From NCBI RefSeq assembly GCF_007748075.1, contig NZ_CP036280.1:390001-422000 (forward strand): DNA of 32,000 nt. Direction: 5' to 3'. Under the pieces are notes generated by a model. It worked only from the letters and a program-made list of their open reading frames with translations. It was not told the origin of the DNA and searched no databases. The stretch comes from Mucisphaera calidilacus (GTDB taxonomy: Bacteria; Planctomycetota; Phycisphaerae; Phycisphaerales; Phycisphaeraceae). The position numbers were made by a program, and so were the translations under genes. The first letter of the stretch is position 1; each line of letters opens with the position of its first letter. This document shows positions 15,785 to 32,000 of this stretch, one piece after another.

Positions 15785-18700
15785 TCATTGGTGGCCAATC
15801 GGTCGGGGTGGTGAGGCGTTCAGGTCCCAAGCCTCAAGCGTAAATCCCCAGTCACCTCCGCCTTGACTGATCCGAGTGACAAGCTCATGGACGCCGGCTG
15901 CGAGATCAAGCGTGACCCTGTCCTCTCCGGGTGTGTACGCGCGTGGACGCTCGGCATCAACGACCTTCCGTCCGTCGAGCCAGACAACCATGCCGTCATC
16001 TGAGCCGCCGATCAACGCAACGCGTGTCGGCTCGCGAAGCGTCAAGCGCGTCCGGGCGTAGGCAATCCGGTCGCCGGATTCGGTCAGCCTCTTCAAATCA
16101 ATCCATGAGCCCTTGTCGCTCCCGGGCAGACGCTGCCACCGCTGCCCGCGGATGCTTTCTGGCAGTGATCGCCGGCCAACGATGGCCTGCTCGATCTCGC
16201 TGATGCCCCGGACTTCATTGATCGTCCCAATCGCGAACGGGCCGATGACCTCCCAATCGAGCCTTGGGGTGACCAGCGGCCGCGTTGAAGCAGCCACTCG
16301 ATCAGAGGCAAACGCTTGAGGGCGAGACAAAGCGTCACGGAGCCCGGTAGCGGGCCGACCATCCGTGGCGGTGATGCGTGCGACCAGTCCCCATCCCCCC
16401 TGGCCCTGCGCAACCTTGATGACGATACGGTTGACACCTTCCCTGAGTTGAACCGGGAGGATGTTCTGATCAGGCAGCGCGGGGCGGTCGAAACTCTCGG
16501 CGAACACGTTCTCGCCGTTCACCCAGACCGTAAGCGTGTCGTCACTGCCCAATCTCAGTTCAACAAGCCGCTCACGATCACTATGGACAAATGCCTGGGC
16601 ATAGGCTGCGGTGTTGTGCCGCTCGCCGAGCAGAGCCGAGAAGTCGAGACCGTTCGTCGCCGCGATGATGAGCGGGTCAACACGTTCCCAACGAACGGGT
16701 CCATCGGGCGTCGCGAACCGCGCGGATGCGGACGGCTCCCACTGTGGAGGATGTGTCGCTGCGAACGCCGCCGACTTGGACTCAGCCGGGAAGGGTCCCG
16801 CGATGATCCATTGAGGCGAACGAACCAGAACCGCTTCACCAGAGGTGTTCCAGCCACCGGGTCCCTCGACGCTCAGCGTCACCCTGCTGTCGCCGATGAC
16901 TCCACCCGCTTCATTGATCTCCATGCCCCAGGTGATCTCGCGGGACTCCCGGGCCTGCAGCCGCATACGCCTTCGTGGCTCTTGAACGCGAACTTCCGAA
17001 GGTGCTGCGATGGACAGCTCCAGAGCGAGCGGATCACCGGTCCTGTTCATGAGTGTCGCTCGGAGCTGGTGATCACCGCTCGTCACGACCTCGCCAACAG
17101 GATCGCGGATTTCGAGCGCGAGCATATCAGACCAGTTCACGCTCCCACGCAGAAGAACTGTCCCGTCGTAACTCAACACGTAGACCTGCCGCTGGCCCGA
17201 CAACGTGCCGGGGTGCGTAGGTGTCAGATCGGCGATCAGACGGTCGCCACTTTTCGATACCACGCCGTCGTGCACGACGTCCGGCTGGTTTTCGGCCCAC
17301 CATCGCAGGCTGAAACGTGACGGTTCGACGGAAGACTCAAACCCTATTACGACCGGGCGGCCGACCAGATTGCCGCTGGCCGGTGCGTCGAGATCACCAA
17401 GCTCTGGAACCGACCCCCACAGGGACGATGGGCTTACGTGCAGGTCTCGGATCGGGGCGTCGGCGTGCCATGTCCCAAACGGCTGTCCCCGGACGCTTCT
17501 GACCGTCAGCTTCGCACCCTGTCGCAGAAAGAGGGGCGGTTGATCGAGTGCCAGCGGGACGTTGAAGGTGCCCGGGCCGGTGAACACCAACGGTTGTTGT
17601 GCGTGCAGCCACTGACCCGGCGGGAAGGTAACAGCTCGCTGCGTGGCGCCCTGCTCCATGACGGGGGCGACGAGCAGGTCTGGCCCCAGCATGTACTGTG
17701 TCGCCAGCCTGGCGTCCGGGTGAGGTGTTCCAGCAAAAAACATCGGGCGCATGATGGGCATGCCTGTTTCTGCAGCCTCCGCGCCCAGTTCAAGGAGTGT
17801 TGGCATCAGACACAGTCGCAGGTGGGCCAGCCGACGATACGCATCGACAGCTTCAGGTCCGAAGTGCCAGGGTTCCCGAGGGTCGATGCCATGGAACTGC
17901 ATGAAGGGGCTGAGTGCTCCGAGTTGCAACCAGCGGATGTAGAGTTCAGGCGTCGCCGTCCCATAGTAACCGCCGATGTCGTGTCCCCAATAGGGCATGC
18001 CGGATAATGAGGATGACAAACCCGCGGTAATAAGCCTGCACAGCTGCGACCACTCGGCTCCCTGATCCCCCGCCCACAAGCCCGGAGCCTTCTCGATGCC
18101 GAGGCTCCCGCTGCGAGACCACAGCATGCCGTCGACTCCTTCCTCGCGAAGCACGTCGTAGGTGGCACGGTTATACGCGGTGGAATACGCGTTATGCGCC
18201 TGCCAGCCGGGTGTGTCCTCGTGCCCGAGTCGGTCATCCGGCTTGATCGCCTCGCCGTCATCCGCCTTGAAACCCGAAATACCCATGCGCACGACCGGCC
18301 GCAGCATTTCTTTCCAGAGGTCAACGCCCTCCGGCTTGAGGAAATCAACGTTCCCGAAGCCCGCGAGCCACTCCTCGCGCAGACTCACCCCACCGCCAGG
18401 ATCGCGCACCAGCAGGCCCTGCTCGGCGGCTTTCGTGAACCATGGCGAAGAGGGATGGAGTATCGGCACCTGCCAGAGCACCACACGAACACCCTCCCGC
18501 GCACAACGATCCAGGAAGCCCTTCGGATCTGGCCATCGCTCCTGAGAGAATCGGTTGAACGACCCGCTCTCGCTGCGGCCCTTCCATGCCTCGAGAACAA
18601 TCACGCCGAAGGGAAGATCACGCTCACGCATGCCGTCCATGGCCGCCTCGGCCTCGTCCTGAGTCTCATAACTGTTCTTGCTGATCCACGGTTGATAGGC

Positions 18701-19411
18701 CCAATCCGGAGCCGGCTCCAGGCCGCCGATCATCCGTGTACGGTCGGCGATCAGTTGCGGGATCGTCTCGGCAAAGCCGACCACGAAGGATGCCGATGTG
18801 CCCGCTCGGCAGTAGCGGTTCCATCCATCGCCCAGACGGTTCAGATCAAAATGCCCCTCAGGGTTGTCGTCTGCAAGGAAGCTGTAGCCCCCAGAGGCGT
18901 AAACGACCGGCGAGACGTAGTAGCTGTCGGAACCCTCGCCGCCCTGGCCCGGTGCATCGACGATCCACATCTCGACCCTGTGTCCGGCTAGATTGAGGCT
19001 GTCGAAACGCTCGCCAAAACCGTACAGCGCTTCGTCGCGACCGGCCTGCCAGGCGATTTCAAGCCCGGGCACGGAGGCACGCCCGTACGACCCGAGTTTG
19101 CTGAACCTGACCCTCCAAGCGGGTGCGCCCTCAGACCGGAGTGTCAGTAACTGATCACGGGGATCGAAACTGGCAGCAATCCCCGGCGAGACCTGCCGGC
19201 TGATGCGCGTTGCGGATGGCTGGGTGATCTCGGCACCCTCCTCCAGATGAATACGGATCATGTTGCTGAGCTCATCATCCACCGTGCTGATACGGATGGT
19301 GATCCCGTCTCGCGTCACAGCAAAGTGCTGGGCATCGTCTTGGGCATTGACCACAACAGGGCTGATAAAGGCGTAAATAACTATCATGAATATACTTATA
19401 GTTAGTTTCAT
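15785..19411 (-). CDS. Glycoside hydrolase family 31 (alpha-glucosidase/alpha-xylosidase-type) with signal peptide and a C-terminal extension of about 550 aa
   Basis: N-terminal signal MKLTISIFMIVIYAFISPVVVNAQ. GH31 boxes: LYGFGERFDSLNLAGHRVEMW, GISGFKADDGE (nucleophile box, 18251-18274), LWAGDQ (acid/base box, WAGDQ = 18062-18076) and YWGHDIGGY (17966-17989). Convergent with the giant gene and divergent from the LacI gene. Confidence 0.85.
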   Translation of the reverse strand: MKLTISIFMIVIYAFISPVVVNAQDDAQHFAVTRDGITIRISTVDDELSNMIRIHLEEGAEITQPSATRISRQVSPGIAASFDPRDQLLTLRSEGAPAWRVRFSKLGSYGRASVPGLEIAWQAGRDEALYGFGERFDSLNLAGHRVEMWIVDAPGQGGEGSDSYYVSPVVYASGGYSFLADDNPEGHFDLNRLGDGWNRYCRAGTSASFVVGFAETIPQLIADRTRMIGGLEPAPDWAYQPWISKNSYETQDEAEAAMDGMRERDLPFGVIVLEAWKGRSESGSFNRFSQERWPDPKGFLDRCAREGVRVVLWQVPILHPSSPWFTKAAEQGLLVRDPGGGVSLREEWLAGFGNVDFLKPEGVDLWKEMLRPVVRMGISGFKADDGEAIKPDDRLGHEDTPGWQAHNAYSTAYNRATYDVLREEGVDGMLWSRSGSLGIEKAPGLWAGDQGAEWSQLCRLITAGLSSSLSGMPYWGHDIGGYYGTATPELYIRWLQLGALSPFMQFHGIDPREPWHFGPEAVDAYRRLAHLRLCLMPTLLELGAEAAETGMPIMRPMFFAGTPHPDARLATQYMLGPDLLVAPVMEQGATQRAVTFPPGQWLHAQQPLVFTGPGTFNVPLALDQPPLFLRQGAKLTVRSVRGQPFGTWHADAPIRDLHVSPSSLWGSVPELGDLDAPASGNLVGRPVVIGFESSVEPSRFSLRWWAENQPDVVHDGVVSKSGDRLIADLTPTHPGTLSGQRQVYVLSYDGTVLLRGSVNWSDMLALEIRDPVGEVVTSGDHQLRATLMNRTGDPLALELSIAAPSEVRVQEPRRRMRLQARESREITWGMEINEAGGVIGDSRVTLSVEGPGGWNTSGEAVLVRSPQWIIAGPFPAESKSAAFAATHPPQWEPSASARFATPDGPVRWERVDPLIIAATNGLDFSALLGERHNTAAYAQAFVHSDRERLVELRLGSDDTLTVWVNGENVFAESFDRPALPDQNILPVQLREGVNRIVIKVAQGQGGWGLVARITATDGRPATGLRDALSRPQAFASDRVAASTRPLVTPRLDWEVIGPFAIGTINEVRGISEIEQAIVGRRSLPESIRGQRWQRLPGSDKGSWIDLKRLTESGDRIAYARTRLTLREPTRVALIGGSDDGMVVWLDGRKVVDAERPRAYTPGEDRVTLDLAAGVHELVTRISQGGGDWGFTLEAWDLNASPPRPIGHQ
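15788..16810 (-). repeat. Two tandem beta-sandwich (jelly-roll/galactose-binding-like or PA14-like) modules at the GH31 C-terminus
   Basis: Module 1 (about 16372-16810): WIIAGPF...VRWERV...AAYAQAFVHSDRERLVELRLGSDDTLTVWVNGENVF...LREGVNRIVIKVAQGQGGWGLVARI. Module 2 (about 15788-16255): WEVIGPF...QRWQRL...IAYARTRLTLREPTRVALIGGSDDGMVVWLDGRKVV...LAAGVHELVTRISQGGGDWGFTLEA. Fold family not resolved. Confidence 0.5.
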
Positions 19412-19530: not shown

Positions 19531-19582
19531 GTTGCCTCGGCATTTGTTTTCTTACTACATCTCAATCACTCAGGCTCGCAGC

Positions 19583-20665
19583 GTGACACAAGCAACCCGT
19601 ACAACAGGAAAAGGCGAAAAGCCGGTCACCACGCTGTCCGCTCTGGCTCGTCACGTCGGCGTTTCACCAACGACCGTCTCTTTCGTGCTCAACGGCAAGG
19701 CCGCTGAGCGGAAAATCTCTGTCGAGACGGTTCAGCGTGTCCTCGCCGCCGCGAAAGACGTCAACTACACCCCCAATGCACTCGCACGCGGTCTCCGCCA
19801 GAAGAAGACGCACGCCATCGGCGTCGTGTTCCCGCACCTCCGCAACGACTGGGCCCACCTGATCATGCGCGGCGTCGTGGAGGAACTCGGAGCTTCGGAG
19901 ACCGTCCCCATGATTGTCTGTCATCACGGCGACGCCGAACTCGAAGCGCGACTGCTCCGTTCGCTGGTCGAGCGACGCGTCGACGGCATCATCTGCAATC
20001 CGCTACGCAACGGCATGGACCGGTACCGCGACGTTGTCCGCCGTGGGGTTCCGTTGATCTTCCTCGGCGACGCCCCCAAGGGACTCGACGAGATTCCCTG
20101 CTCGGCGTGGGATCCCGCTGCCGTGCACCTGGCCGTGGAACACCTGCTGGCGTTGGGGCATCGACGCATCGTCTATCTCGGGAGCCGTGATAATCGCGTG
20201 ATCTCTGAGGCCCGGCGGCATGTCTTCTGGGACAGCCTCAGGCAAGCCGGATTGTCGCCTTCCCGTCGCGACATCATCCTGAGCAGCACGTCCGAGGACG
20301 TGGGCGATGGACCGCTGGAGTTGCTCCGCGGTGAGAACCCACCCACGGCGTTCTTCGTCGAGTACGACGATCAGGCTGTCAGCCTGTACCAGCTCCTCGA
20401 TGACGCCGGCGTAGCGTGTCCCCGTAACGTCTCGATCGCCACCATGGGTGGTTCGCCTCGGAGTGTGTCCGCGGGTTGCTGTCTGACGACCGTCTCAGCC
20501 CCGGTGGTCGATGAGGGACGCGCGTGCGCACAACGACTCATGAGCATGATCGATGAACCCGAGCACAAGCCCGAACGGGCGTATGTGCACGGCGGATCGC
20601 TTCTCGTCGGACAGACCACGGGGCCTGTCGCGAACTCGAAACCCGGATCCCGAGGGACACCATGA
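19583..20665 (+). CDS. LacI/GalR-family transcriptional regulator
   Basis: [26 protein letters not shown]...[38 protein letters not shown] followed by a periplasmic-binding-protein-like sugar-binding core. Start uncertain: GTG 19583 is preferred. The TTG 19532 in the ORF track would add an AT-rich extension that overlaps the candidate operator. Confidence 0.85.
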
Positions 20666-21462
20666 AACGCACGAACGGATTCACCCTCATCGAACTTCTT
20701 GTGGTGATCTCGATCATCGCGCTGCTGATCGGTATCCTGCTGCCCGCACTAAGCGCCGCAAGGAACACGGCACGATCGGCGGCATGCCTCTCGAACCAAC
20801 GCCAGTTGGGCATCGCACTGGTGAGTTACACGATCGACCACGACGGCTACTTCCCGCCGGTGCGCGACTGGGCACTGCTGTTCGGTGGCGTCGGTGAAAC
20901 CTCGCGTTTTCAGGACGGCGCCCAGACGGGGACGCCGATCGATGCAGCGAGCGCCCCCCGACCGCTGCTCGACGCCGGCTACCTCGGCGACAGCAAAGGC
21001 TCCGAGTGCCCCGCTGACATCGGTGATCCCGAGTTCGACGGCACGACGGATCCCGTCGAGAACACCTTCGAGGCCTACGGCAGCAGCTACCGGGCGATCA
21101 TCGAAGTGGACATCCGCCAGCGGGTCCTGCCCGGGCGTGATCCCGTAGCGCTCTACGGCGTGGACTACATCGGTTGGCGTCCGACGGGCTACGGCGGAGC
21201 CTACAACGACGTGGCCCCCAGGCGGATGGACGATTACGACCGAAATCTCAGCGTCAAGATCGTCGCTGGAGACTGGAACTGGCTGCCCGATGAGGTCTGG
21301 GCAGACACCCCCAAAGCCAGGTGGCACGGCTCGGGCGAGCGGGCTAACAACATGATGTACGCCGACGGACACGCCGCTTACTACCGGTTTACGGCTGAGT
21401 ATGAACAACGCTTTGCCACCAATGTGTTCGCCCCCGCTGATCCCAATTTGGGTTACTGGTAA
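20662..21462 (+). CDS. Prepilin-type N-terminal cleavage/methylation domain protein (pseudopilin-like, HX9DG/DUF1559-like)
   Basis: [53 protein letters not shown] is the classic GFTLIE prepilin leader plus hydrophobic helix. C-terminal [21 protein letters not shown] is an H-X12-DG variant. Its ATG overlaps the LacI stop (ATGA at 20662-20665). Confidence 0.85.
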
Positions 21463-21515: not shown

Positions 21516-23483
21516 ATGTCCAATCAAGGCCTGACCTTCACGACGCTCATGCTGGTTGCCGCCGCTCTCGGCGGGCAGACCCATACACACGCCGCCACCA
21601 TCGGCAGCGACGACGCCGGCCGGGCGAGCTATGTCGCCAGCGGCTGGTTCGATGGCCAGAACGACGGCGTCGGCTTCGGCCCCTGGAAACTCCTCTCGGA
21701 CGCCACCGGCGGCGGATTCGCAGGCTTCTACAGCGCCGACAATCTCGGGGGAGTCGACAACATCGGCGTCGAACAGACCCCGCCGCTGCCCTATGCCAAC
21801 CCCGCCGCCGAGGGACGCGTCTGGGCCAGCTACGCCAACAAGGGCGACGGCATCGACCGCGCCACGGCCTTCCGATCGCTCGATGAATCGCTGGACGGCC
21901 TCGGCGACAGCTTCTCGGTCAGCTACGAACACGGGTTCGTCAACGGTGCCGCAGGCGTTGCCCTCAGGACCGCCAATATCAGTGACCTCGCTGAGGATTA
22001 CGACGCCGGAGCAAGGGCACAGTTCCAGTTCAGCGGTGGCAACGGCGTCTACGCTCTGATCGACGACGCGGGAACAGTGGAACTCGACGGCTCCGCCGGC
22101 CTGCCGTTTGTCCCCTTCACCTTCTTCGGCGTGGACCTGACTTACACCATGACCGGTCCCGACACCTACGATCTTCAGATCACCAAGTACAACGCCGAGG
22201 CAGGGTCAGGCGGCTCGGCACCCGATGTCTTCAACAAGACCACGCACCCGGCGCTGGGCGGGCGCAGCCTCGCGGGGACCGGTACGATCGACTCGGTCGC
22301 GCTCTATCAGGAAGACGTGGAGAAGCAGAGCGACGGCTTCTTCAACAATCTCAACTACACTACCTCCACCGGTAACGGTGCCGACAACGCCGCCAACTAC
22401 TTCGGCCTCTGGTTCGAGGGCGACAACTTCGGCAACGGATTCGGGCCGTGGGTGTTCACCTCCGAAACCGACGGCGGCTTTGCGGGCAATTTCATCCAGG
22501 CAGGGGCCGGCAACGGCGTCGATAACGCCGGAACGCCTGCCCCCGACGGATCTGTCTGGGCCAGCTACGCCAATCAGGGCAACTTCGCCGACAAGGCCGT
22601 GCAGTACCGAAACCTGAACCATCTACTTGGCGAGCCGAACGACACCTTCTCCGTCTCCTTGGAGAACGGGTACGTCGATCCCGGCGGCCGCGTGGGCATC
22701 TCGCTGCTGGACGGATCGGTCCAGCCCGACGTGACGCCTGATGACTACGCCAGCAACGCTCTTTTCCAGTTCTTCTTCGAGGGCGGCAACGAGACTTACA
22801 CCCTGATCGATGCCAGCGGCGAGATCGACACAGGCGTCAATTTCTCGTTCTGGGGCGTCGACCTCGATCTTGTCATGACCGGCATCGGAACCTTCGACCT
22901 GACCATCACGCGCTACGGCGAACCCAACGACGCCGAGCCCGAGATCACTACGCTCAGCGACCTGACCCTCGCGACGACGCCCGGCACCGGCATGATCGGC
23001 TCTCTGGCTTTCGTGAATGTGGACGCACCCAATCAGAGCGACGTCTTCTGGAATCATCTCACCTACGCCACCGACCAAGGCGGCGGCCTCGAGGGTGATT
23101 TCAACAATGACGGAATCGTCGATGACATGGACATCGATCTTCTGCGCGAGAACCTCGGCGACCCGGCGTTCGACCTCGACGGCAATGGCGTCGCCGACGC
23201 TGACGACATGATCTACATCGTCGAAACAATCATCGGTTCCCGTCTGGGCGACGCTAATCTCGATCGGACGGTCGATCTGCTGGACCTCTCGGCGTTGGCG
23301 TCGAATTTCAACAGCGCCGCCGGTTGGGCGGGCGGCAACTTCAACACCGACGCCGCGGTTGACCTGCTGGATCTCTCAATTCTTGCGGCCTCGTTCGGTC
23401 AGTCAGCGACCGTTCCCGAACCGGGTGCCGCCGTTCTGTTAACGCTCGGGCTGGCAGGTGTGGCCCGGAGGAAACACGGATAA
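21516..23483 (+). CDS. PEP-CTERM surface protein: signal peptide, two copies of an unrecognised ~230-255-aa module, dockerin-like repeats, PEP-CTERM anchor
   Basis: GGAGAA lies 7 nt upstream of ATG 21516. Signal MSNQGLTFTTLMLVAAALGGQTHTHA. Module copies at about 21603-22363 and 22378-23070. Dockerin-like GDFNNDGIVDDMDIDLL ... GDANLDRTVDLLDLSALASNFN ... GNFNTDAAVDLLDLSILAASFG. VPEP (23412-23423) plus hydrophobic helix plus RRKHG. The ORF-track start 21480 is probably too early. Confidence 0.85.
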   Translation: MSNQGLTFTTLMLVAAALGGQTHTHAATIGSDDAGRASYVASGWFDGQNDGVGFGPWKLLSDATGGGFAGFYSADNLGGVDNIGVEQTPPLPYANPAAEGRVWASYANKGDGIDRATAFRSLDESLDGLGDSFSVSYEHGFVNGAAGVALRTANISDLAEDYDAGARAQFQFSGGNGVYALIDDAGTVELDGSAGLPFVPFTFFGVDLTYTMTGPDTYDLQITKYNAEAGSGGSAPDVFNKTTHPALGGRSLAGTGTIDSVALYQEDVEKQSDGFFNNLNYTTSTGNGADNAANYFGLWFEGDNFGNGFGPWVFTSETDGGFAGNFIQAGAGNGVDNAGTPAPDGSVWASYANQGNFADKAVQYRNLNHLLGEPNDTFSVSLENGYVDPGGRVGISLLDGSVQPDVTPDDYASNALFQFFFEGGNETYTLIDASGEIDTGVNFSFWGVDLDLVMTGIGTFDLTITRYGEPNDAEPEITTLSDLTLATTPGTGMIGSLAFVNVDAPNQSDVFWNHLTYATDQGGGLEGDFNNDGIVDDMDIDLLRENLGDPAFDLDGNGVADADDMIYIVETIIGSRLGDANLDRTVDLLDLSALASNFNSAAGWAGGNFNTDAAVDLLDLSILAASFGQSATVPEPGAAVLLTLGLAGVARRKHG

Positions 23484-23565
23484 TCAGGCCCCTACGCCTG
23501 CCGGATAACCCGATTCGCGACTGGCTTCTATTCACCCTTTCCTGATCACTGGAGGAGAAAGCATC

Positions 23566-24345
23566 ATGAATCACACGCAACTCACCATCACGCTCCTGAC
23601 AGCCCTGGGCATCGGCACCGCCTGCGCCTCTGCAGCGGATGTCGGCTTCGACGACGCGAGCGCCGCGGCGTACAGCGACGGCTGGGACAACTTCGACGAC
23701 GGTAACACCGGCGGCGGCCCCGGCATGGGCGGCTGGGTCTTCGGCGGCAACGCGGTCAGCGGCACGACGGTCGACATCGCCAGTTCTGCCGGCTTGGGCG
23801 GCGGTGTCGCCGCGATCGATACGGACGGCAAGGCGTTCAAGATCCATGACACCTCGGGTGGCTTCGTCGACGTCTTCCGCTTCTTCGATCCTGAGGGTCT
23901 CGACGCGGGCCAGGTCTTTACCATGGAGATGGCCGTGAACTTCCGTGGCGGCTTCAAGGGCATGGACCTCCGTGGCACCGACACCAGCACCATCTTCAAT
24001 CTCAACGTGGGTGGTGACGATTACACCGTCGGTCAGGCCACGACCGGCAGCGGCAGCCTCGGCAACGCCTACAGCAACGATACCCGTTTCACCCTCGAAT
24101 TCGTACAGACGACACTGGCAGGCGGCGAATGGACCGTGACGCGATCCGGCGGCATCGACGACGTCGATACCGGCACCTATACGGGCCGAGCCGGCAGCAT
24201 CAAGCTCTACAGCGGCAGCCAGGGAAGCTTCGGCGAGGACGCCATCTACTACAACAACTTCTCGGTCACACCGATCCCCGCGCCCGGCGCCGCAGCCTGC
24301 GGCCTGCTCGGACTCGGCGGGCTGGCCCTCAGACGTAACCGCTGA
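23566..24345 (+). CDS. Small PEP-CTERM surface protein carrying one divergent copy of the same module
   Basis: GGAGGAG (23551-23557) precedes the ATG. Signal MNHTQLTITLLTALGIGTACASA. Module at about 23635-24270 (AAYSDGWDNFDDGNTGGGPGMGGW ... IYYNNFSVT). IPAP (24274-24285) plus GAAACGLLGLGGLAL plus RRNR. Confidence 0.85.
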   Translation: MNHTQLTITLLTALGIGTACASAADVGFDDASAAAYSDGWDNFDDGNTGGGPGMGGWVFGGNAVSGTTVDIASSAGLGGGVAAIDTDGKAFKIHDTSGGFVDVFRFFDPEGLDAGQVFTMEMAVNFRGGFKGMDLRGTDTSTIFNLNVGGDDYTVGQATTGSGSLGNAYSNDTRFTLEFVQTTLAGGEWTVTRSGGIDDVDTGTYTGRAGSIKLYSGSQGSFGEDAIYYNNFSVTPIPAPGAAACGLLGLGGLALRRNR

Positions 24346-24357
24346 GCCTCCTCCTGA

Positions 24358-24392
24358 CCGGAGCGGGTGCTGACGCGCCCACTCCGGTTTTT
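24358..24392 (+). terminator. Rho-independent terminator-like hairpin between the small module gene and the GH66 gene
   Basis: CCGGAGCGGGTG (24358-24369), 6-nt loop, CGCCCACTCCGG (24376-24387). This gives 10 Watson-Crick pairs, one G-U pair and one C/A mismatch, followed by TTTTT (24388-24392), 13 nt after the TGA stop. Confidence 0.55.
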
Positions 24393-24424
24393 AGCTGTGG
24401 CCGAGTCATCGTGAGGTCGTCCGG

Positions 24425-27349
24425 ATGAAACCAAGCGTGTGCAGACTGCCGGTCATTATCGTCACGGCCCTGTTCTGTGGTCACGCAGATGCTGCGATGA
24501 CACTCGAAGGCAGCGCGGCACGGTACGACCCCGGCGACCCGATCAACCTCCGGCTCGACACACCCGCCCAGGTGACCAACGCGACCGCTGAGGTTACCTA
24601 CCGATATCTTGGCGACGTTGTGGCCACGCAGCAGTTCGAAGTCAACGGATCCGAGGCCACATGGCAGTGGCTTGCACCGGACGATGATTTTCGCGGCTAC
24701 ACCGCGGAGGTTCGCCTCTACGAACAGCAGACGCTGATCGATAGCGGCTCCATCGCCATCGACGTCTCGTCCGACTGGGCGAAATTCCCTCGCTACGGCT
24801 TTCTCTCGGACTACAGCTTCCTATCAGCCAGCCAAATGGACGCTGTGATCGATGACCTCAATCGCCATCACATCAACGGCCTGCAGTTCTACGACTGGCA
24901 CAGCACGCATCACCGCCCGCTGGAGGGCAGCGTCCAGAATCCCGCCTTCAGCTGGCGCGATATCGCCAACCGACGCAACTACCGGACCACTGTCGAAGGC
25001 TACATCGAACGCGCCCGGGACCGAAACATGGTCACGATGGCCTACAACCTTCTCTACGGCGTCAACGAGGCCGCGGGTGCTGCTCAGGATGGCGTCTCCC
25101 CCGACTGGTTTCTTTACCGAGACAGTCAGCAGGGCAGCAAGGACATCCACACCCTCCCCGCGGGATGGAAGAGCGATGTCAGCCTCGTCGACCCTTACAA
25201 CGCCGGTTGGCGCGAGCACATCGCTCAGGAAACAGCCAGAGCCGCAGAGGCTTATGGCTTCGACGGTTGGCACGTCGATCAACTCGGAGATCGTGGTCAG
25301 GTCTACGCCGCCAACGGCCGACCCGTTGATCTCGAACCCGCCACGGGGGCTTTTGTTTCGGCCATGGCATCGCACCCGGATCTTGTCGGCCAGCGTTTCG
25401 TCGCCAACGCCGTTAACCAGTACGGCCAGGCCGCGCTCGCCATCGCACCGGTTGACTTCCTCTACACCGAGGTCTGGAACCCGAACGAGCACTACAACGA
25501 TCTTGCCGGCGTCCTCATGGACAACCACGAGCTCTCGGGCGGGCAACTCAACTCCGTGCTCGCGGCTTACATGAACTACGACCATGCCGATCAGCCGGGT
25601 GCCTTCAACACCCCCGCCGTGCTCATGACCGATGCCGTCATCTTCGCCTTCGGCGGGGCCCACATCGAACTGGGCGAGCACATGCTCGGCAAGGAGTACT
25701 TTCCCAACAACACCCTCGCCCAGGACGCCACCCTCCGCCAGGCAACCCGCGCTTACTACGACTTTCTGGTCGGCTATCAGAACCTGCTCCGCAACGGAGG
25801 AACGTTCCACACCCACAGGCTGACGTCGCCGACCCATCCGATGTCCGATTGGCCGGCACAGCAGGGGCGTGTCGCGGCCCTCAGCAAGACCGTCGGAGAA
25901 CACGAAGTCTTCCACCTGATCAACTTTCTGGACGCGGCGCACATGAACTGGCGCGACACCAACGCGACCCAGCCCCAGCCGCTGCGACGTGATGACATCG
26001 TGCTCGAGACACACACGCAACGCCGTCTCAACAAGGCCTGGTTCGCGACACCCGATGATTCCAACGGGCTGCCGAGCGACGTTGCCTTTCTTCAGTCGCC
26101 CAACGGTTTCGTGCGTTTCACCGTCCCGTCGCTTGAGATCTGGACGATGGTCGTCGCCGAGGGTGATGCGCCTCGTGGGCACGACCAGGCGAACGATCCC
26201 GCTTACGACCACGGCTGGACCGACGGGTCAGACGGCGGACACGGTTTCGGCCCGTGGTCCCTGCGGGCCACATCGACGGCCGGGGGGTTCGCCGGTTTCT
26301 TCCGCCCGGATGACGCCCAGGACTCACGCGGCCTCGACAACACGGGCTCGGATCATGCCTCGACCGGCGTGACACTCGCCAGCTTCGCCAACAAGGGATC
26401 GGGGATCGAGCAGGCCACGGCCCTACGCACCCTCGACGAAACACTCGACAGCGCAGGCGACACGTTTCGGGTCACCTTTGAGCACGGGACGATCACCGGA
26501 CAGGTAGGTTTCACGCTCCGCGAAGTGAGCACGGCAGAGGTGCCCTCCGACTACGCCATCGGATCACGCTTCCAGCTGCTGGCGCTGGCAGGCAGCGCGA
26601 ATTACCAGATCCTCGACGCGGACGGAATCTTTGACACCGGTGTGCCCCTGACGGACCTGGGCATCACCGCCCAGGTGCGGCTGATCGACCTTCACACCTA
26701 CGACCTCACTCTCTGGCGGTACGAAACACCCCGCGACTTCGACCCCGTGGCCCACACCTTCACGGGCCGCAGCCTCGCCCTGAGCGACCCGATCGTTGGC
26801 TTCGCACTGTTTCAGCACGATGCTGCCGGCGGACTGATCCAGGACGATGTCTTCTGGAATCACATCAGCTACACGCTTGGCGAAGCATCCCCCAACGACC
26901 TCAACGCCGACGGTGTCGTCGACCTCGATGATCTCGATTACCTCGTCGGCCATCAATTCGATTACAACGGTGATGGCTACGACGCGAGCGACGTCAGCGA
27001 TTTCGCCTCCGAGGTGCTCGGTCTACGCATCGGTGATGTCAACGCCGACGGCAACATCGACTTGCTCGATCTGTCCCTGCTCGCCAGTCATTTTGACCTG
27101 CCCGGGACCCTCTGGTCACAGGGCAACCTCAACGGTGACGCTGCTGGAACCGATCTGCTCGATCTGTCCCTGCTCGCCAGCAACTTCGGCTCCTCGGCAA
27201 TCCTGCCCGAACCGACATCCGTCCTGGCAATGGGACTCGTCATCTTGGCACGATCACGACGATCTCGCGCATCAGCATCAAATCCAGGCGAAAAACGCAT
27301 CATCCCAGACGGCCAACGACACGCTCGGTCTTCCTGTTTTCACAACTAA
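24425..27349 (+). CDS. GH66-like endo-dextranase/cycloisomaltooligosaccharide glucanotransferase-family enzyme fused to the unrecognised module, dockerin-like repeats and a PEP-CTERM anchor
   Basis: Signal MKPSVCRLPVIIVTALFCGHADA, then an Ig-like N-domain. GH66-type boxes from memory: DVSSDWAKFPRYGFLSDY (FPRYGF = 24785-24802), HINGLQFYDWH (24881-24898), GFDGWHVDQLG (candidate nucleophile D285, 25277-25279) and FLYTEVWNP (candidate acid/base E349, 25469-25471). Module at about 26178-26875. Dockerin-like repeats at 26889-27197. ILPEP (27200-27214) plus helix plus RSRRSR. Confidence 0.7.
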   Translation: MKPSVCRLPVIIVTALFCGHADAAMTLEGSAARYDPGDPINLRLDTPAQVTNATAEVTYRYLGDVVATQQFEVNGSEATWQWLAPDDDFRGYTAEVRLYEQQTLIDSGSIAIDVSSDWAKFPRYGFLSDYSFLSASQMDAVIDDLNRHHINGLQFYDWHSTHHRPLEGSVQNPAFSWRDIANRRNYRTTVEGYIERARDRNMVTMAYNLLYGVNEAAGAAQDGVSPDWFLYRDSQQGSKDIHTLPAGWKSDVSLVDPYNAGWREHIAQETARAAEAYGFDGWHVDQLGDRGQVYAANGRPVDLEPATGAFVSAMASHPDLVGQRFVANAVNQYGQAALAIAPVDFLYTEVWNPNEHYNDLAGVLMDNHELSGGQLNSVLAAYMNYDHADQPGAFNTPAVLMTDAVIFAFGGAHIELGEHMLGKEYFPNNTLAQDATLRQATRAYYDFLVGYQNLLRNGGTFHTHRLTSPTHPMSDWPAQQGRVAALSKTVGEHEVFHLINFLDAAHMNWRDTNATQPQPLRRDDIVLETHTQRRLNKAWFATPDDSNGLPSDVAFLQSPNGFVRFTVPSLEIWTMVVAEGDAPRGHDQANDPAYDHGWTDGSDGGHGFGPWSLRATSTAGGFAGFFRPDDAQDSRGLDNTGSDHASTGVTLASFANKGSGIEQATALRTLDETLDSAGDTFRVTFEHGTITGQVGFTLREVSTAEVPSDYAIGSRFQLLALAGSANYQILDADGIFDTGVPLTDLGITAQVRLIDLHTYDLTLWRYETPRDFDPVAHTFTGRSLALSDPIVGFALFQHDAAGGLIQDDVFWNHISYTLGEASPNDLNADGVVDLDDLDYLVGHQFDYNGDGYDASDVSDFASEVLGLRIGDVNADGNIDLLDLSLLASHFDLPGTLWSQGNLNGDAAGTDLLDLSLLASNFGSSAILPEPTSVLAMGLVILARSRRSRASASNPGEKRIIPDGQRHARSSCFHN

Positions 27350-27439: not shown

Positions 27440-27482
27440 AGTTCTAACGCTAATTTAACCCATCTTGACAGGAGGAAGAAGT

Positions 27483-28523
27483 ATGCGATCTCTAGCCCTT
27501 TGTTGCGCGGTGGCCGGTCTGTCGTCTGCGGCGCTCGCAGCCGATTACGTGGAAGTCGCCAGCCATGAGGATCTCTTTGGTGCGGGCTCAACCATGTTCA
27601 CACGCTCGGTCGTTACCGATGGCGCGTCCACGCTCTACGTCTTCGGCGCGGATAACAACCCGCTGGGCTTCGAGGTGATCAAGTACGACACCACGACCAG
27701 CACCGCGACCAAACTCGCCGACCTTACCAGCTTCGTCAGCGATATCCCGAGCTTCTCCCCGGACGACCCCTTCCCAGGCTATGGCTTCGGCTACGTCGCC
27801 GCGACGAACGAGCTGCAGCTGATCGACGGCGCTTCCAGCGCCATCTATCGCTTCGACGCCAGCACGGGTGACGCCTATGAGTATCTCTCGAACGCGGCCA
27901 TTGCCGCGCACACGGGACTCGCCAGCGCCGACCTCGTGAACTACTCCGGCACCACGGTCGACGGCGAAGCGGTCTTCTTTGAAGACGATTCCAAGAGCAT
28001 CCTCATCAGCTCATCGGCGGGCAGTGTCTCGACGCTGGTCTCGGCCACGGAACTCGTCGATGCCACCGGCGGCAACGACGTCCGTACCGGACTCACCTCC
28101 GACGGCCAGGGCAACTACTACTGGGGACAGAACAGCACCGACGTCATCTACAAGTATGACGGCAACACCGTCTCGCCCTTCATCGCCATCGGCGCTGTCG
28201 GCGGAGACAGCTTCTCAGGTGACATGTTCTACGCACCCGACGGTCTCATCTACGTCCGCATGCGTACCGGCGGCGCGAACGCCCTCTGGTCTTTTGACCC
28301 CGCGGCTGTCGATCCCACCGCGAGTCTGACCCAGATCCTCTCGGGCAGCCAGCTCGCGGACGGACCTCTCGGAAGCAACTTCATCAGCGAGATCAGCTGG
28401 TTTGAGGGGCAGCCCGGCTTCCACCGTATCTCCACCAGCCTCGGCTACTACGCCGTCCCCGCCCCGAGCACCTTCGCCCTGGCAGCGATTCTCGGGATGG
28501 CCGGCCTCACCCGCCGTCGCTGA
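27483..28523 (+). CDS. PEP-CTERM surface protein, beta-propeller-like repeats, unknown family (paralogue of 29359-30708)
   Basis: AGGAGGA lies 6 nt before the ATG. Signal MRSLALCCAVAGLSSAALA. Repeated strands: ELQLIDGASSAIYRFDASTGD, GEAVFFEDDSKSILISS, GNYYWGQNSTDVIYKYDGN and DGLIYVRMRTGGANALWSFDP. VPAP (28455-28466) plus helix plus RRR. Confidence 0.8.
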   Translation: MRSLALCCAVAGLSSAALAADYVEVASHEDLFGAGSTMFTRSVVTDGASTLYVFGADNNPLGFEVIKYDTTTSTATKLADLTSFVSDIPSFSPDDPFPGYGFGYVAATNELQLIDGASSAIYRFDASTGDAYEYLSNAAIAAHTGLASADLVNYSGTTVDGEAVFFEDDSKSILISSSAGSVSTLVSATELVDATGGNDVRTGLTSDGQGNYYWGQNSTDVIYKYDGNTVSPFIAIGAVGGDSFSGDMFYAPDGLIYVRMRTGGANALWSFDPAAVDPTASLTQILSGSQLADGPLGSNFISEISWFEGQPGFHRISTSLGYYAVPAPSTFALAAILGMAGLTRRR

Positions 28524-28554: not shown

Positions 28555-28589
28555 AAAAACCGTCCCGCTTCGTGCGGGGCGGTTTTTTT
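28555..28589. terminator. Bidirectional rho-independent terminator shared by convergent genes
   Basis: AAAAA, then ACCGTCCCGC (28559-28568), loop TTCGT, GCGGGGCGGT (28574-28583), then a T-run (7 T in total, 28583-28589, the first being the last stem base). The 10-bp stem has one G-U pair. It lies between the stops at 28523 (+) and 28612 (-). Confidence 0.85.
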
Positions 28590-28611: not shown

Positions 28612-29325
28612 TCAGTTGTCTTCCATCACCCGGAAGCCCGTGGAGAGGTCAAGGTAGATCTCGTTGACGCCCATGCCCGAACGCCCGTCGCTCTGGTCGC
28701 TGCGACGGGTAGCGCCGCGGTGATAGAGCGTCTGCGGGCGGAAGAAATTGCGATTATCCGGCGTGCCGCTGTAGGGGCCGCCGGCGCCTGAGGTCGGGGA
28801 GAAGTAGACGTTGCTCGGCGCGGGCCTGAGATTCCAGTTGTCCGCGATCCAGAAACCGGAATTGTCGTCGTCAGCGAGGTAATTGCTCTGATCCTGCGTG
28901 AAAGGGTCGGAGGCATTGACGATGTAGGTGTTGCCGTGGTCGTTGTCGACGATGTCGTAGGTGTTCAGCAGGCAGATGTACACCGCGCTGTCGGCGGCGA
29001 TCAGGTCAAGATCATCGAAGAGCGCCTGCAGGCCGAAGGTCTCCGGCCCGTTGCTCGGTGTGACCGGGGTGCTCTCACGCCCGGGAGCGACGCGAAAGTT
29101 CGCTCCGCCCAGTGACTCTCTCGACGGCATGGTGTAATTCGGGCTGTCGTTCTGATACACGCCGCCGGCGATGCCGATCTGACGAAGGTTGTTCATGCAC
29201 TGAACGTGCTTGGCACTCCTGCGGGCGCTGCCCAGCGCGGGCAGCAGGATGGCGATCAGTAACGCGATGATGGAGATCACCACAAGCAATTCGATCAGCG
29301 TAAAACCTTGTCGTGGATGTTGCAC
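28612..29325 (-). CDS. Prepilin-type N-terminal cleavage/methylation domain protein (pseudopilin-like), second copy
   Basis: GTG start with GGAG 5 nt upstream. [54 protein letters not shown]-terminal [15 protein letters not shown] is an H-X10-DG variant. It begins 33 nt downstream of the preceding gene on the same strand. Confidence 0.85.
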
Positions 29326-29358: not shown

Positions 29359-30708
29359 TCAGCCTGAACGCCGGACCGTCAAGACGGCAAGACCGATCAT
29401 ACCCGTGATCAGTGTACCGGGTGCCGGCACCGAATCACCCGAGCTGAAGTTGGCGGCCAGGATCGACAGGTCCAGCAGGTCGACGAGGCCGTCGCCATTG
29501 AAGTCACCCTCCGACGTGGCGTAGGGCGTGTCACTCCCGTCGAAGTTCGAGGCCAGGATCGACAGGTCCAGCAGGTCAACCACGCCGTCCTCGTTCGCGT
29601 CACCCGGCAGGACATCGGGGACGTCGAGTGTAATCCCGTAGATACCATCGTTGGCCACGAAGCTCGTCCATGTCAGCTTCGCCCCGTACACGCTGAAGTC
29701 GTTGATGTTCTCGCTGCTCATGCCGCCCGCCAGCAACTGACTGGTGTCCAGCACGCGTTCGAGCGTCTCGATCGGGTCGTCGGGGTCGAAACGCAGCAGG
29801 GCGTCGTTGCCCCGCTCGTAGAGGTAAAGCAGGCCATCCGCACCCAGGATCAGGTCATTGAAAGCGGCGTAATCAGCCCCGAAAAACGGGTCCGAACGCG
29901 ACACCGGCACGATCTCCTCCTGCGGGAGGGCTTGGCTGAGCGTCCCGTCGCTGGCACGCTGGTAGATGCTGCCTCGCGCGTTGTTGCTCGACGTGAACGA
30001 GCTGCCGCTCAGCGTCCAGAAGAAGTTGTCGTTGTCATCGAATGCGAGCCCGCCACTCACGTAGCTGCTCAGCGAGGCGTCGCCCACGATGCCCTGCAAC
30101 TCCGCCTTGGTCAGGAAGACCGACAACGCGCCCTCGGTGGTGACCTTGATCACCTGGTCAGAACGATCCTCGTAGAGGTACATGTTGCCCGCGGCATCAA
30201 ACGTGGATTCGCCACGGACCTGCAACTCCGTCAGCCCCGTCAGGGCCAGGATGTCCGTCGCCGTGATGAGTGTCGAGAGGTCACCGGTCGTGGTGTCGGC
30301 ACGGTAGATAGCGTCGGTCGACTGGTCGAGAAACTGCAGGCTGCTGCCTAGAACCCGCGAGCGGCTCCCGGGCAGGATCGAGCTGTTCCCGGTGTAGGCC
30401 AGCCAGTCTGCCGCAGAGACAAGCGTCGTCTTGACCGGGCTGTCGTCGAGGCTCTCGAGCTTCGTAATCTGCATGTCGAACGTCGGCGTGATACCGCTCT
30501 CGACGTCACGCAGGATGAAGTAGCCGCTGTCGCCGGCGAAGGTGTGTGTCGACGCGTAATTGAAGTTCGAGGCCGTGCGGATACTGCCGATACTCCAAAG
30601 CGTGTCGTAGTTGGCCTCGGCCGACTGCGACGGCAGCAGGCACGCCAACGCGAGCAGCAGTGATCCGAGTGTCAGGCGGTTGCGGTGTGTGTGGGTGAGC
30701 ATCATCAT
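29359..30708 (-). CDS. PEP-CTERM surface protein, propeller-like repeats plus dockerin-like pair (paralogue of 27483-28523)
   Basis: GGGAGG (30709-30714) is followed by three consecutive ATGs (30708, 30705, 30702), so the exact start is uncertain. Signal MMMLTHTHRNRLTLGSLLLALACLLPSQSAEA. SLQFLDQSTDAIYRADTTTGD, GNMYLYEDRSDQVIKVTTEG and DGLLYLYERGNDALLRFDPDDP align with the + strand paralogue. GDANEDGVVDLLDLSILASNF...GDFNGDGLVDLLDLSILAANF (29434-29604). SVPAP plus helix plus RRSG (29362-29433). Confidence 0.8.
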   Translation of the reverse strand: MMMLTHTHRNRLTLGSLLLALACLLPSQSAEANYDTLWSIGSIRTASNFNYASTHTFAGDSGYFILRDVESGITPTFDMQITKLESLDDSPVKTTLVSAADWLAYTGNSSILPGSRSRVLGSSLQFLDQSTDAIYRADTTTGDLSTLITATDILALTGLTELQVRGESTFDAAGNMYLYEDRSDQVIKVTTEGALSVFLTKAELQGIVGDASLSSYVSGGLAFDDNDNFFWTLSGSSFTSSNNARGSIYQRASDGTLSQALPQEEIVPVSRSDPFFGADYAAFNDLILGADGLLYLYERGNDALLRFDPDDPIETLERVLDTSQLLAGGMSSENINDFSVYGAKLTWTSFVANDGIYGITLDVPDVLPGDANEDGVVDLLDLSILASNFDGSDTPYATSEGDFNGDGLVDLLDLSILAANFSSGDSVPAPGTLITGMIGLAVLTVRRSG

Positions 30709-30889
30709 CCTCCCAGCAAAATAAAAGTAATTCCAAGCCTCTCTGACCGGCTCGAAACAGGCCATGCCTCCGTACCTGACAAGCTATCAGTATGCGGTGT
30801 ACGCGGCCGTCATGTCGACAGAATTATGACATGATAATTGCATCTTAATAGCACAATATTAAACAATGATCGATGTTCCGTCAATGTCA

Positions 30890-32000
30890 TTATGGATGCG
30901 ATGACGCCTCTTGCCAACGCCCGTAATGCGGATAATCCATCGGGCGAATCACCTTGCCGCCGATTCGCAAGGACGTAAAACGACTGGGAGGCAGCACGCC
31001 GGCCTCGGCCATCTCAAGACTGAGCCGCTCAGACCGTTCGGGCCTGATCTCCCGGGCCGCATCGATGACGTACAGCCAGTCGCTCGAAGGCTGCGCGGGC
31101 CTGAGTGCCTCAGCGAAGGAAAGGGCCGATTCTGCCAGCGAGGCCGTCGGGCTGACGTGCCGCTGAATCGACGTCGACAGCAGGCAGGCAAGCCGCAAAC
31201 GGCTAGGTTCGCCCCCACGAACGGGCTGATCCGGATCAGCAAGCCGATCTAGAAGCAGGGTTCCCAGCTGCTCCGTGGCAGCCGGAGGCAGAGCATGCAA
31301 CAGCAACTCGGGATCTGCGGGCAGCACGCGAGGGTGTGTGCTGTTGAGCAAACGCCCCAAACGCTCCTCCACCACCTCCCATTCGCCCCGAAGGGTCGCG
31401 AGCCGGGTCTCCAGACGCAGGAGTTCTGAGGCGGCCAACGAGGCAGATGCGATCTCGGTCCAGCGGCCGATCTGATCAAGCAGTTGCTGCTGCCTGTCCG
31501 GTGTCAAAGCGGCTGCATGATCAGAAAGCAGCCTAAGGAGGGTCGACGACGGCACATCGACCGGCGTAGGTTGCAGGATCATCCCCAAGTCATGGGTATC
31601 GATCGGCTCGGGCACAGAGATCACCCTCGGCGTCAACCCTGCCCGCTGACGCGCGAGTAACCAGCGTTTGAGTAATTCAGCCCGCTCGGGCCTGTTCAGC
31701 GGGAGGACCTTCAGCAGCTGAGCGATCCGAGCGTCATCCGGTGCGTTGCTCGCTCGCCCCAGCCATGCGGCCAGCGACTCGCCAGCCGCAGCATCCGGGG
31801 TTTCCAGCCTCGACGCCGTGGCAGCAAGCAACCGCAGGTCAAGCAGGTCCGGCTCGTCCTGCTGAGCGATGCGCGCGGTGAGTTCTTCCACGAGTTCTTG
31901 GGTCCGTCCCGCTGCAACGGCCGCGTCGGCCAGGCCCTCGATCAGCCCCGGGACATCGTTGCGGTCCGGCGTCGCCGTCGAGAGCCGCGCCTGGTACAGC
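30890..32000 (-). CDS. Hypothetical protein, A/L/R-rich and probably helical, possibly 5'-partial
   Basis: Long minus-strand ORF with high-GC codon usage ending at 30890. The ORF-track start is GTG 31891, but the frame has no stop between 31892 and the right edge, so the gene may start outside the window. No recognisable motif. Confidence 0.6.
   Translation of the reverse strand, partial: LYQARLSTATPDRNDVPGLIEGLADAAVAAGRTQELVEELTARIAQQDEPDLLDLRLLAATASRLETPDAAAGESLAAWLGRASNAPDDARIAQLLKVLPLNRPERAELLKRWLLARQRAGLTPRVISVPEPIDTHDLGMILQPTPVDVPSSTLLRLLSDHAAALTPDRQQQLLDQIGRWTEIASASLAASELLRLETRLATLRGEWEVVEERLGRLLNSTHPRVLPADPELLLHALPPAATEQLGTLLLDRLADPDQPVRGGEPSRLRLACLLSTSIQRHVSPTASLAESALSFAEALRPAQPSSDWLYVIDAAREIRPERSERLSLEMAEAGVLPPSRFTSLRIGGKVIRPMDYPHYGRWQEASSHP

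Follow-up and report, generated by a model that had tools for sequence, protein, structure and literature searches.

A protein module of about 230 residues was found four times in a 32,000 bp stretch of the Mucisphaera calidilacus genome (contig NZ_CP036280.1, positions 390,001 to 422,000). This whole stretch is called the window below, and all positions are counted from its first nucleotide unless another contig is named. The four copies lie in three consecutive plus-strand open reading frames (ORFs), here named ORF A, ORF B and ORF C, and belong to a large family that has no annotation. We consider that the module is probably a secreted and non-catalytic glycan-binding unit, similar to a carbohydrate-binding module (CBM) or a lectin. 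Polysaccharide is the most likely ligand class, because the family recurs fused to or beside sugar-degrading enzymes. Mucisphaera is a member of Phycisphaeraceae, Planctomycetota.

Four homologous copies in three consecutive genes

An earlier note, made from the nucleotide sequence alone, had marked four similar stretches in this region. Through translation, BLASTP and profile searches, we confirmed that all four are real, in frame and located in three consecutive genes of the plus strand. Copy 1 (21603-22364, residues 30-283, HMM envelope with E 1e-112; HMM, hidden Markov model) and copy 2 (22377-23072, residues 288-519, E 4e-98) stand in tandem in ORF A. Copy 3 (23635-24273, residues 24-236) was recognized in ORF B by the family HMM and by hhalign, and copy 4 (26177-26878, residues 585-818, envelope E 9e-104) is C-terminal to the GH66 domain of ORF C. 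The starts of copies 2 and 4 had been placed at 22378 and 26178; the codon-exact starts are 22377 and 26177.

Pairwise BLASTP related copies 1, 2 and 4 to each other, with alignments spanning 226-262 aa. Copies 1 and 2 shared 41% identity over 245 aa (E 1e-44), copies 1 and 4 shared 36-37% (E 6e-45), and copies 2 and 4 shared 36% (E 4e-37). The ORF B copy gave no significant pairwise BLASTP match to the other copies (best E 0.013-0.37), which would fit a chance or compositional resemblance among Gly/Asp/Thr-rich secreted proteins. However, the local family HMM, composed of 178 domains from 150 family representatives, matched ORF B over HMM positions 4-229 with 49.1 bits (E ~6e-15 to 1e-14), and the top score among 2000 composition-preserving shuffles of ORF B was only 9.7 bits. 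The hhalign comparison of ORF B with a 45-sequence alignment of the family gave a probability of 98.3% (E 1.9e-14, 230 aligned columns); with a 5-sequence profile the match was weak (64%). The other copies matched the same HMM, all at about positions 4-229, with E 1e-54 for copy 1, 1.5e-58 for copy 2 and 1.3e-61 for the copy in ORF C. Together with the strong BLASTP values of these three copies, the more than 1100 homologous clusters and the confident AlphaFold model described below, these results refute resemblance by chance. All four copies are homologous, three by BLASTP and the fourth by profile.

Copy 3 is the divergent one. Of the 69 well-conserved positions of the family it retains 31, compared with 48-50 in the other three. 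The N-terminal signature D-x-A-x4-Y-x3-W ... G-x-G-(F/M)-x2-W and the C-terminal (F/Y/W)-N strand were revealed in all four copies, including residues D6, A8, Y13, W17, G24, G26, W30 and N222. Four aromatic columns, Y13, W17, W30 and Y142, which are aromatic in at least 91% of the family, are also present in every copy and are candidate sugar-stacking residues. Among the shared blocks listed in the earlier note, GGFAG and WAS(Y/F)AN do not extend to ORF B, which has neither, and its opening blocks are listed with the third and fourth exchanged relative to its coordinates. A search of the six frames of the window with the family HMM revealed no fifth copy.

The three proteins have signal-peptide-like N-termini, and their translations end in (V/L)PEP or PAP followed by a hydrophobic stretch and an Arg cluster. 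ORF A (21516-23483, +, 655 aa) is composed of a signal peptide, the two tandem modules, Asp-rich repeats similar to dockerin or EF-hand repeats (residues ~527-624, 23094-23387) and a PEP-CTERM sorting tail made of VPEP, a hydrophobic stretch and RRK (23409-23480); no catalytic domain was found in it. The repeats reached a sub-threshold 11.6 bits with Pfam Dockerin_1, and those of the ORF A orthologue P0003 passed with 27.7 bits. The tail scored 19.1 bits with PF07589 (cut-off 20.7) and 14.8 bits with TIGR02595 (cut-off 16); that of P0003 scored 24.2 bits with Pfam, above the cut-off. The start codon ATG at 21516 and the upstream GGAGAA are both kept in a Mucisphaera metagenome-assembled genome (MAG).

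ORF B (23566-24345, +, 259 aa) contains a signal peptide, one divergent module and a PAP-type C-terminal tail. The PAP motif is readable in the sequence, and no PEP-CTERM HMM of Pfam or NCBIfam matched the tail. Orthologues of ORF B were detected at loci L004 and L002. On the metagenome contig L002, the ORF A orthologue (contig positions 9992-11852) is split into parts of 378 aa and 223 aa by a frameshift or an assembly error; the ORF B orthologue is located upstream, and a GH66-module gene is located 4.5 kb downstream, behind a sigma-70/anti-sigma-like pair.

ORF C (24425-27349, +, 974 aa) consists of a signal peptide, a GH66 region, the module, dockerin-like repeats (26897-27184, Pfam Dockerin_1 16 bits, sub-threshold) and a PEP-CTERM-like tail of LPEP, a hydrophobic stretch and RSRRSR (27203-27277), which is readable in the translation and scored a sub-threshold 12.8 bits with PF07589. 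The fusion to a GH66 enzyme proposed in the earlier note was borne out. PF13199 matched residues 32-577 (24518-26155) with E 1e-174, covering profile positions 4-546 of 546, and assigned the domain to the dextranase / cycloisomaltooligosaccharide glucanotransferase (CITase) family. Among solved structures the best relative is PDB 8iu8 (E 7e-155), and the GH66 relatives of known structure all stop at residue ~580 of ORF C, just ahead of the module. The NCBIfam endo-dextranase equivalog scored 628 bits, below its cut-off of 730, and therefore the exact activity may be that of either a dextranase or a CITase. About 26 extra residues (27278-27349, +) follow the PEP-CTERM-like tail of ORF C, an uncommon extension for a sorting signal at the C-terminus; the Mucisphaera orthologue comprises 962 aa compared with 974 aa, both counted from the first possible start codon.

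The three genes had been described as encoding consecutive PEP-CTERM proteins. This holds for the tails visible in the translations but not for the HMM scores of the window proteins, which stay under the curated cut-offs, and the next gene, ORF D, adds a fourth such tail in a protein without the module.

Predicted fold and comparison with known systems

No sequence model of Pfam, NCBIfam or PDB was found on the module, in agreement with the earlier note, which could not recognize it. Pfam-A gave no match at E<=1 with the window proteins and none at E<=5 with 45 stand-alone members of the family, and NCBIfam gave nothing apart from PEP-CTERM tail models. Profile searches of the PDB sequences revealed nothing meaningful, the only match being ICOS at E 0.35.

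An AlphaFold2 model of ORF C residues 580-818 (26162-26880), predicted with 45 sequences, had a pLDDT of 91.4 and a pTM of 0.90 (predicted local distance difference test and predicted template modelling (TM) score) and formed a sandwich of about 14 strands. An earlier model with 5 sequences had a pLDDT of 72, and the Foldseek lists of both models agree. The 50 matches listed by Foldseek against PDB included VIP36, ERGIC-53, Emp46/47, calreticulin, YesU, SO2946, GH16 glucanases, galectin-8 and CBM4, with E ~1e-4, TM scores of 0.36-0.54 (calreticulin up to 0.54) and ~10% identity. Nearly all of the best-ranked solved structures among these listed matches bind carbohydrate or act on it. As modelled, the module is a concanavalin A (ConA)-like lectin/glucanase beta-sandwich, that is, a jelly roll; this names a fold class and not a family membership.

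The top Foldseek matches are L-type lectins (VIP36, ERGIC-53/LMAN1, Emp46/47) and the lectin domain of calreticulin (E ~1e-4, TM 0.41-0.54), with TM 0.41-0.51 for VIP36, ERGIC-53 and Emp47. They share the ConA-like curved beta-sandwich with the module, are similar in size (~220-250 aa) and are non-catalytic glycan binders. The likeness is at fold level only, with ~10% identity, no Pfam lectin model at E<=5 in 45 members and no match among PDB sequences. The setting also differs, as the module occurs in bacterial surface proteins with a PEP-CTERM tail and in fusions with glycoside hydrolases (GHs). YesU (DUF1961, PDB 1oq1) and SO2946 (PDB 2a5z), two stand-alone bacterial proteins of ~220-240 aa in the same fold class, rank high in both Foldseek lists. 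They tell nothing on mechanism, because their own functions are not established and they have no sequence-level relation to the module.

In its arrangement the module resembles the beta-jelly-roll CBMs (CBM4, CBM6/35 and CBM66), which are likewise attached N- or C-terminally to GHs through Ig-like spacers, are often tandem and also occur in enzyme-free proteins. CBM35 occurs in GH66 enzymes of Paenibacillus. CBM4 and CBM66 are also present, at lower ranks, in the Foldseek lists. However, the module is larger than most CBMs, and no Pfam CBM model matches it. One locus of the family (L007) contains a classical CBM6/35 as well as the module, indicating that the module is distinct from CBM6/35. 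In the sense of CAZy, the module is a candidate CBM: it is a discrete fold appended to enzymes of at least five GH families (GH66, GH31, GH13, GH57 and GH5), and it presumably binds carbohydrate.

ORFs A and B are also comparable with SusE and SusF, which are enzyme-free surface proteins with one to three glycan-binding beta-sandwiches, encoded beside the GHs and the regulator of a locus for alpha-glucan utilisation. SusE/SusF are anchored by an N-terminal lipid, whereas ORFs A and B carry a PEP-CTERM tail; SusE/SusF stand next to a SusC/SusD pair, and the window ORFs scanned included no SusC/D-type gene. They belong to another sequence family and another phylum, and the comparison is a functional analogy only. 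The earlier note had suggested a likeness to SusD, SusE or SusF; we retain it for SusE/F-type surface binders and drop it for SusD, whose helical fold is unlike that of the module.

The GH16 beta-glucanases among the listed Foldseek matches lead to the question whether the module is itself a ConA-fold enzyme, such as a GH16-like glycanase/transglycosylase or a polysaccharide lyase, working alongside GH66, GH13 or GH5. Four acidic columns, each kept in 71% or more of the family, would be compatible with catalysis, and stand-alone members are located beside transporters as if they provided the sole extracellular function of the locus. However, neither the four window copies nor any of the 178 family domains contained the GH16 motif E-x-D-x(x)-E, the acidic residues that are conserved stand isolated, and Foldseek ranks lectins over enzymes. 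Tandem arrays of two to six copies and fusion to genuine catalytic domains are common traits of binding modules, and three of the four acidic positions have been lost from ORF B, which is nevertheless maintained in orthologous loci. A GH16-like enzyme was rejected for the absence of the catalytic motif, and we regard enzymatic activity of any ConA-fold kind as improbable.

Family distribution, partners and alternative functions

An exhaustive HMMER search of 1.84 billion representatives, in which matches were counted as clusters at 50% identity, gave 1105 clusters for a threshold of E<=1e-3; of these, 620 remained at E<=1e-10 and 92 at E<=1e-30. Word-indexed protein searches gave only two matches for copy 1 and four for the 45-sequence profile; in view of the 1105 clusters, these small numbers reflect a limit of the index and not rarity. 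The source databases annotate members as 'hypothetical protein', or as 'dextranase' for the GH66 fusions, and no description of the module was found in the full-text literature. In the resources queried, the sequence family, its size, the PEP-CTERM-anchored enzyme-free form and the link to alpha-glucan loci in the Planctomycetes-Verrucomicrobia-Chlamydiae (PVC) group are undescribed; the fold and the functional logic, those of a CBM or a surface glycan-binding protein, are of already known kinds.

Architectures were counted in the 149 best representatives. Fifty-two of them are stand-alone (<=350 aa) and nine are built solely of tandem modules; the others are larger proteins, up to 3913 aa long, with the module N-terminal in 33, internal in 30 and C-terminal in 25. 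Two to six copies of the module were revealed in 44 of the 149, a number per protein that is typical of binding modules. A PEP-CTERM tail was found in 12 of 45 stand-alone members (Pfam E<=5), and tails of the type IX secretion system (T9SS; Por_Secre_tail) in four of 60 scanned representatives.

A genome scan with the family alignment revealed five loci, with relatives in a Mucisphaera MAG, in Verrucomicrobiia MAGs and in a Phycisphaerales MAG. The Mucisphaera MAG (Phycisphaerae) showed 83% identity and kept the gene order GH31, LacI, pilin-like gene, A, B and C; no closer match was found among the GTDB representative genomes. Several representatives are located on contigs too short to show the gene context.

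In the 60 representatives scanned with Pfam, the module was fused to GH66 in two and to GH31 in one. The other domains were PKD, HYR, FG-GAP, TSP3, BACON, fn3 and T9SS tails, together with one GSDH, one S53 pro-domain and one phosphoesterase. A second set of 45 metagenome fusion ORFs, taken from 80 loci that are the 80 best matches to one subfamily, included GH13 (ten), GH5 (seven), GH57 (four) and CBM48 (one), with Ig-like spacers. The architectures resolved were GH13-Big_5-Flg_new-module, GH5-cadherin-module, module-GH5, S53-module and phosphoesterase-Ig-module.

Stand-alone members were repeatedly found beside GH13/GH57, sugar-transporter and LacI genes, and this in independent lineages. 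The stand-alone/tandem representative P0002 is accompanied by MFS_2 and two GH13 genes, and P0023 is located inside a set of sugar-transporter genes of the ATP-binding cassette type, with two GH13 and MFS_2. A CBM48/GH13 protein is encoded 15 nt downstream of P0036, a GH57/GH13 giant is the neighbour of P0042, MFS_2 is found at both P0017 and P0033, and a LacI gene lies 12 nt upstream of P0022. GH1, GH5+CBM6 and DUF1559 were found at L007, and a GH5 fusion, a second GH5 and LacI at L006. L008 carries three modules and then a GH13-like protein; in this Phycisphaerales MAG (contig positions 3336-6424) the modules are three consecutive stand-alone proteins and the GH13-like protein comprises 1001 aa, a layout like that of ORFs A and B in expanded form. 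When the 144 genes within two positions of module genes were pooled, Alpha-amylase and DUF885 were the most frequent with five genes each, and tetratricopeptide repeat families and LacI came next with four each. The main theme of the partners is alpha-glucan metabolism (GH13, GH57, GH66, GH31 and CBM48), with GH5 and GH1 as a minority.

The ConA-like model, the GH fusions and the sugar-gene neighbourhoods support the CBM-like reading suggested in the earlier note, with glycan binding as the probable function. No confident match to a characterised family of non-glycan function was found in the sequence and structure searches that were run. Several observations nevertheless weigh against glycan binding. 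The 45 metagenome fusion ORFs also included S53 pro-domains (five), phosphoesterases (two) and an esterase (one), the family contains adhesin-like giant members with PKD, FG-GAP, HYR and TSP3 repeats, and locus L005 has no neighbouring carbohydrate-active enzyme. Since the 80 loci are the best matches to one subfamily, the fusion counts are not phylogenetically independent. The partners act on both alpha-glucans (GH13, GH57, GH66 and GH31) and beta-glycans (GH5 and GH1), so that no single ligand is indicated. The ORF B copy is without E99, D146 and D218, three of the four conserved acidic positions. Finally, the modelled likeness to lectins is at fold level only, and ConA-like folds also have non-glycan functions.

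Alternatively, the module might be a generic domain for attachment or adhesion at the envelope and not a CBM that targets substrate, binding the cell's own surface polymer, extracellular polymeric substances, a protein or another surface, and so tethering enzymes and adhesins. The module lies within 80 aa of the C-terminus in 25 of the 149 representatives, in many cases after Ig-like spacers and without other anchor, and the peptidase, phosphoesterase and esterase partners and the giant adhesin-like members would suit a tether. However, every module protein in the window already has a PEP-CTERM-type tail, which would make a second anchor redundant, and the stand-alone secreted modules with their own PEP-CTERM tail (12 of 45) have nothing to tether. 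Adjacency to GH13/GH57, sugar transporters and LacI is also not expected of a general anchor. We therefore hold this function to be possible but unlikely.

The repeats that follow the module in ORFs A and C suggest still another role, in which the module would be a receptor for dockerin-like repeats, which abound in this part of the genome, and thus a cohesin analogue that assembles enzyme complexes at the surface. The repeats of both proteins are dockerin-like, if sub-threshold, the orthologue P0003 is above the Dockerin_1 cut-off, and clear dockerin domains are present in two other window proteins. Across the family, however, Dockerin_1 is not a recurrent partner in the 60 + 45 scanned members, no cohesin occurs among the 50 Foldseek matches listed, and no dockerin genes lie near the stand-alone members in their GH13, MFS and LacI neighbourhoods. 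With neither cohesin in that list nor dockerin co-occurrence in the family, the cohesin analogue was rejected, and we consider a receptor of this kind highly improbable.

The locus and its proposed function

The cluster is co-directional on the plus strand and is composed of a LacI gene, a pilin-like gene and ORFs A, B, C and D in this order. Its first gene (19532-20665) encodes a LacI-family sugar-responsive regulator, identified by the Pfam LacI helix-turn-helix domain (45 bits) together with Peripla_BP_1 and Peripla_BP_3. The second gene (20662-21462) overlaps the LacI stop codon by 4 nt and encodes a prepilin-type N-methylation / DUF1559 pilin-like protein. In Pfam, N_methyl scored 32 bits and DUF1559 22.8 bits against a cut-off of 23.3, and NCBIfam gave pseudopilin-type N-terminal matches. 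ORFs A, B, C and D come after it, with gaps of 53-115 nt. ORF D (27465-28523, 352 aa), the last gene, encodes a PEP-CTERM-like protein of unassigned family with a VPAP...RRR tail (Pfam PEP-CTERM 16.8 bits, sub-threshold); it showed no module match with the family HMM, no other family match and no PDB relative. A strong bidirectional hairpin terminator (28555-28587) with a 14-bp stem, eight GC pairs and a T-run closes the cluster, and between the LacI gene and this hairpin no terminator-like site of the plus strand was listed.

Divergent from the cluster, across a gap of 120 nt, is the gene of a GH31 glycoside hydrolase (15785-19411, -, 1208 aa) with a signal peptide. Pfam revealed the TIM barrel (E 1e-68) and the N- and C-terminal GH31 domains. 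The protein is extended C-terminally by ~570 aa of unassigned family (15785-17500, -), for which no sequence match was found in Pfam or PDB. By eye the extension comprises two similar repeats, which end in ...GGWGLVARI and ...GGDWGFTLEAW, and it may be another unannotated beta-sandwich.

The window also contains a giant ORF of 5175 aa (104-15631, +), whose C-terminal half carries four FG-GAP and five PKD domains and a dockerin type I domain; its first ~3000 aa are without Pfam match, and a strong negative GC skew runs along the ORF. The giant ORF and ORF D were considered as further carriers of the module and rejected, having no family-HMM match. A second prepilin-type N-methylation/DUF1559 gene (28612-29325, -) is located on the other side of the cluster, followed by a 468-aa protein (29359-30765, -) with a dockerin type I domain (33.5 bits) and an otherwise unannotated sequence, and by a 333-aa ORF (30890-31891, -) with no Pfam match. 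DUF1559 pilin-like genes were also found near module genes at loci L002, L007, L008 and L095. The DUF1559 pilin-like family is very abundant in Planctomycetota and Verrucomicrobiota, and for this reason its adjacency to module genes may be chance.

The locus reads as a sugar-regulated unit for the extracellular breakdown of dextran or another alpha-glucan, with its genes presumably co-transcribed. ORF C would be a cell-surface GH66 dextranase whose appended module holds the alpha-glucan polymer near the catalytic domain. ORF A with two modules and ORF B with one divergent module would serve for enzyme-free glycan capture, anchored through PEP-CTERM, and would so correspond in function to the SusE/F-type proteins that bind glycans on the surface of Bacteroidota; the module of ORF B perhaps recognizes a different ligand or register. 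The released oligosaccharides might then be processed by the secreted GH31 enzyme and by putative transporters. Dextran or another alpha-glucan is the putative ligand, and surface display would presumably depend on an exosortase, a gene for which was not found in the 32-kb window.

A more far-reaching proposal is that the module founds a new and widespread family of alpha-glucan-binding CBMs, and that the PEP-CTERM-anchored enzyme-free proteins form the glycan-capture layer of polysaccharide utilisation loci in the PVC group. This layer would correspond in function to SusE/F and the other surface glycan-binding proteins of Bacteroidota, and it may pass polymers to the DUF1559 pilin-like proteins at the flanks of these loci. 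We regard this as speculative and rather doubtful. It would agree with a 'fishing-rod' uptake of entire dextran molecules by pilin-like proteins in Planctomycetes, which has been put forward as a hypothesis only (PMC12078418).

Planctomycetota and Verrucomicrobiota play a major part in the degradation of complex polysaccharides, and for the capture of polymers at their cell surface the review cited above describes uptake by pilin-like proteins only as a hypothesis. The module is not a mechanistic surprise, but it is a candidate entry point to the question of polymer capture, and the locus could be used as a test system that offers the module in three natural forms: paired in tandem, single and divergent, and fused to an enzyme. 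If binding is confirmed, the module would represent a new CBM family and a new affinity module for dextran or alpha-glucan, and thousands of 'hypothetical' proteins from metagenomes of soil, peat and aquatic habitats would be better annotated.

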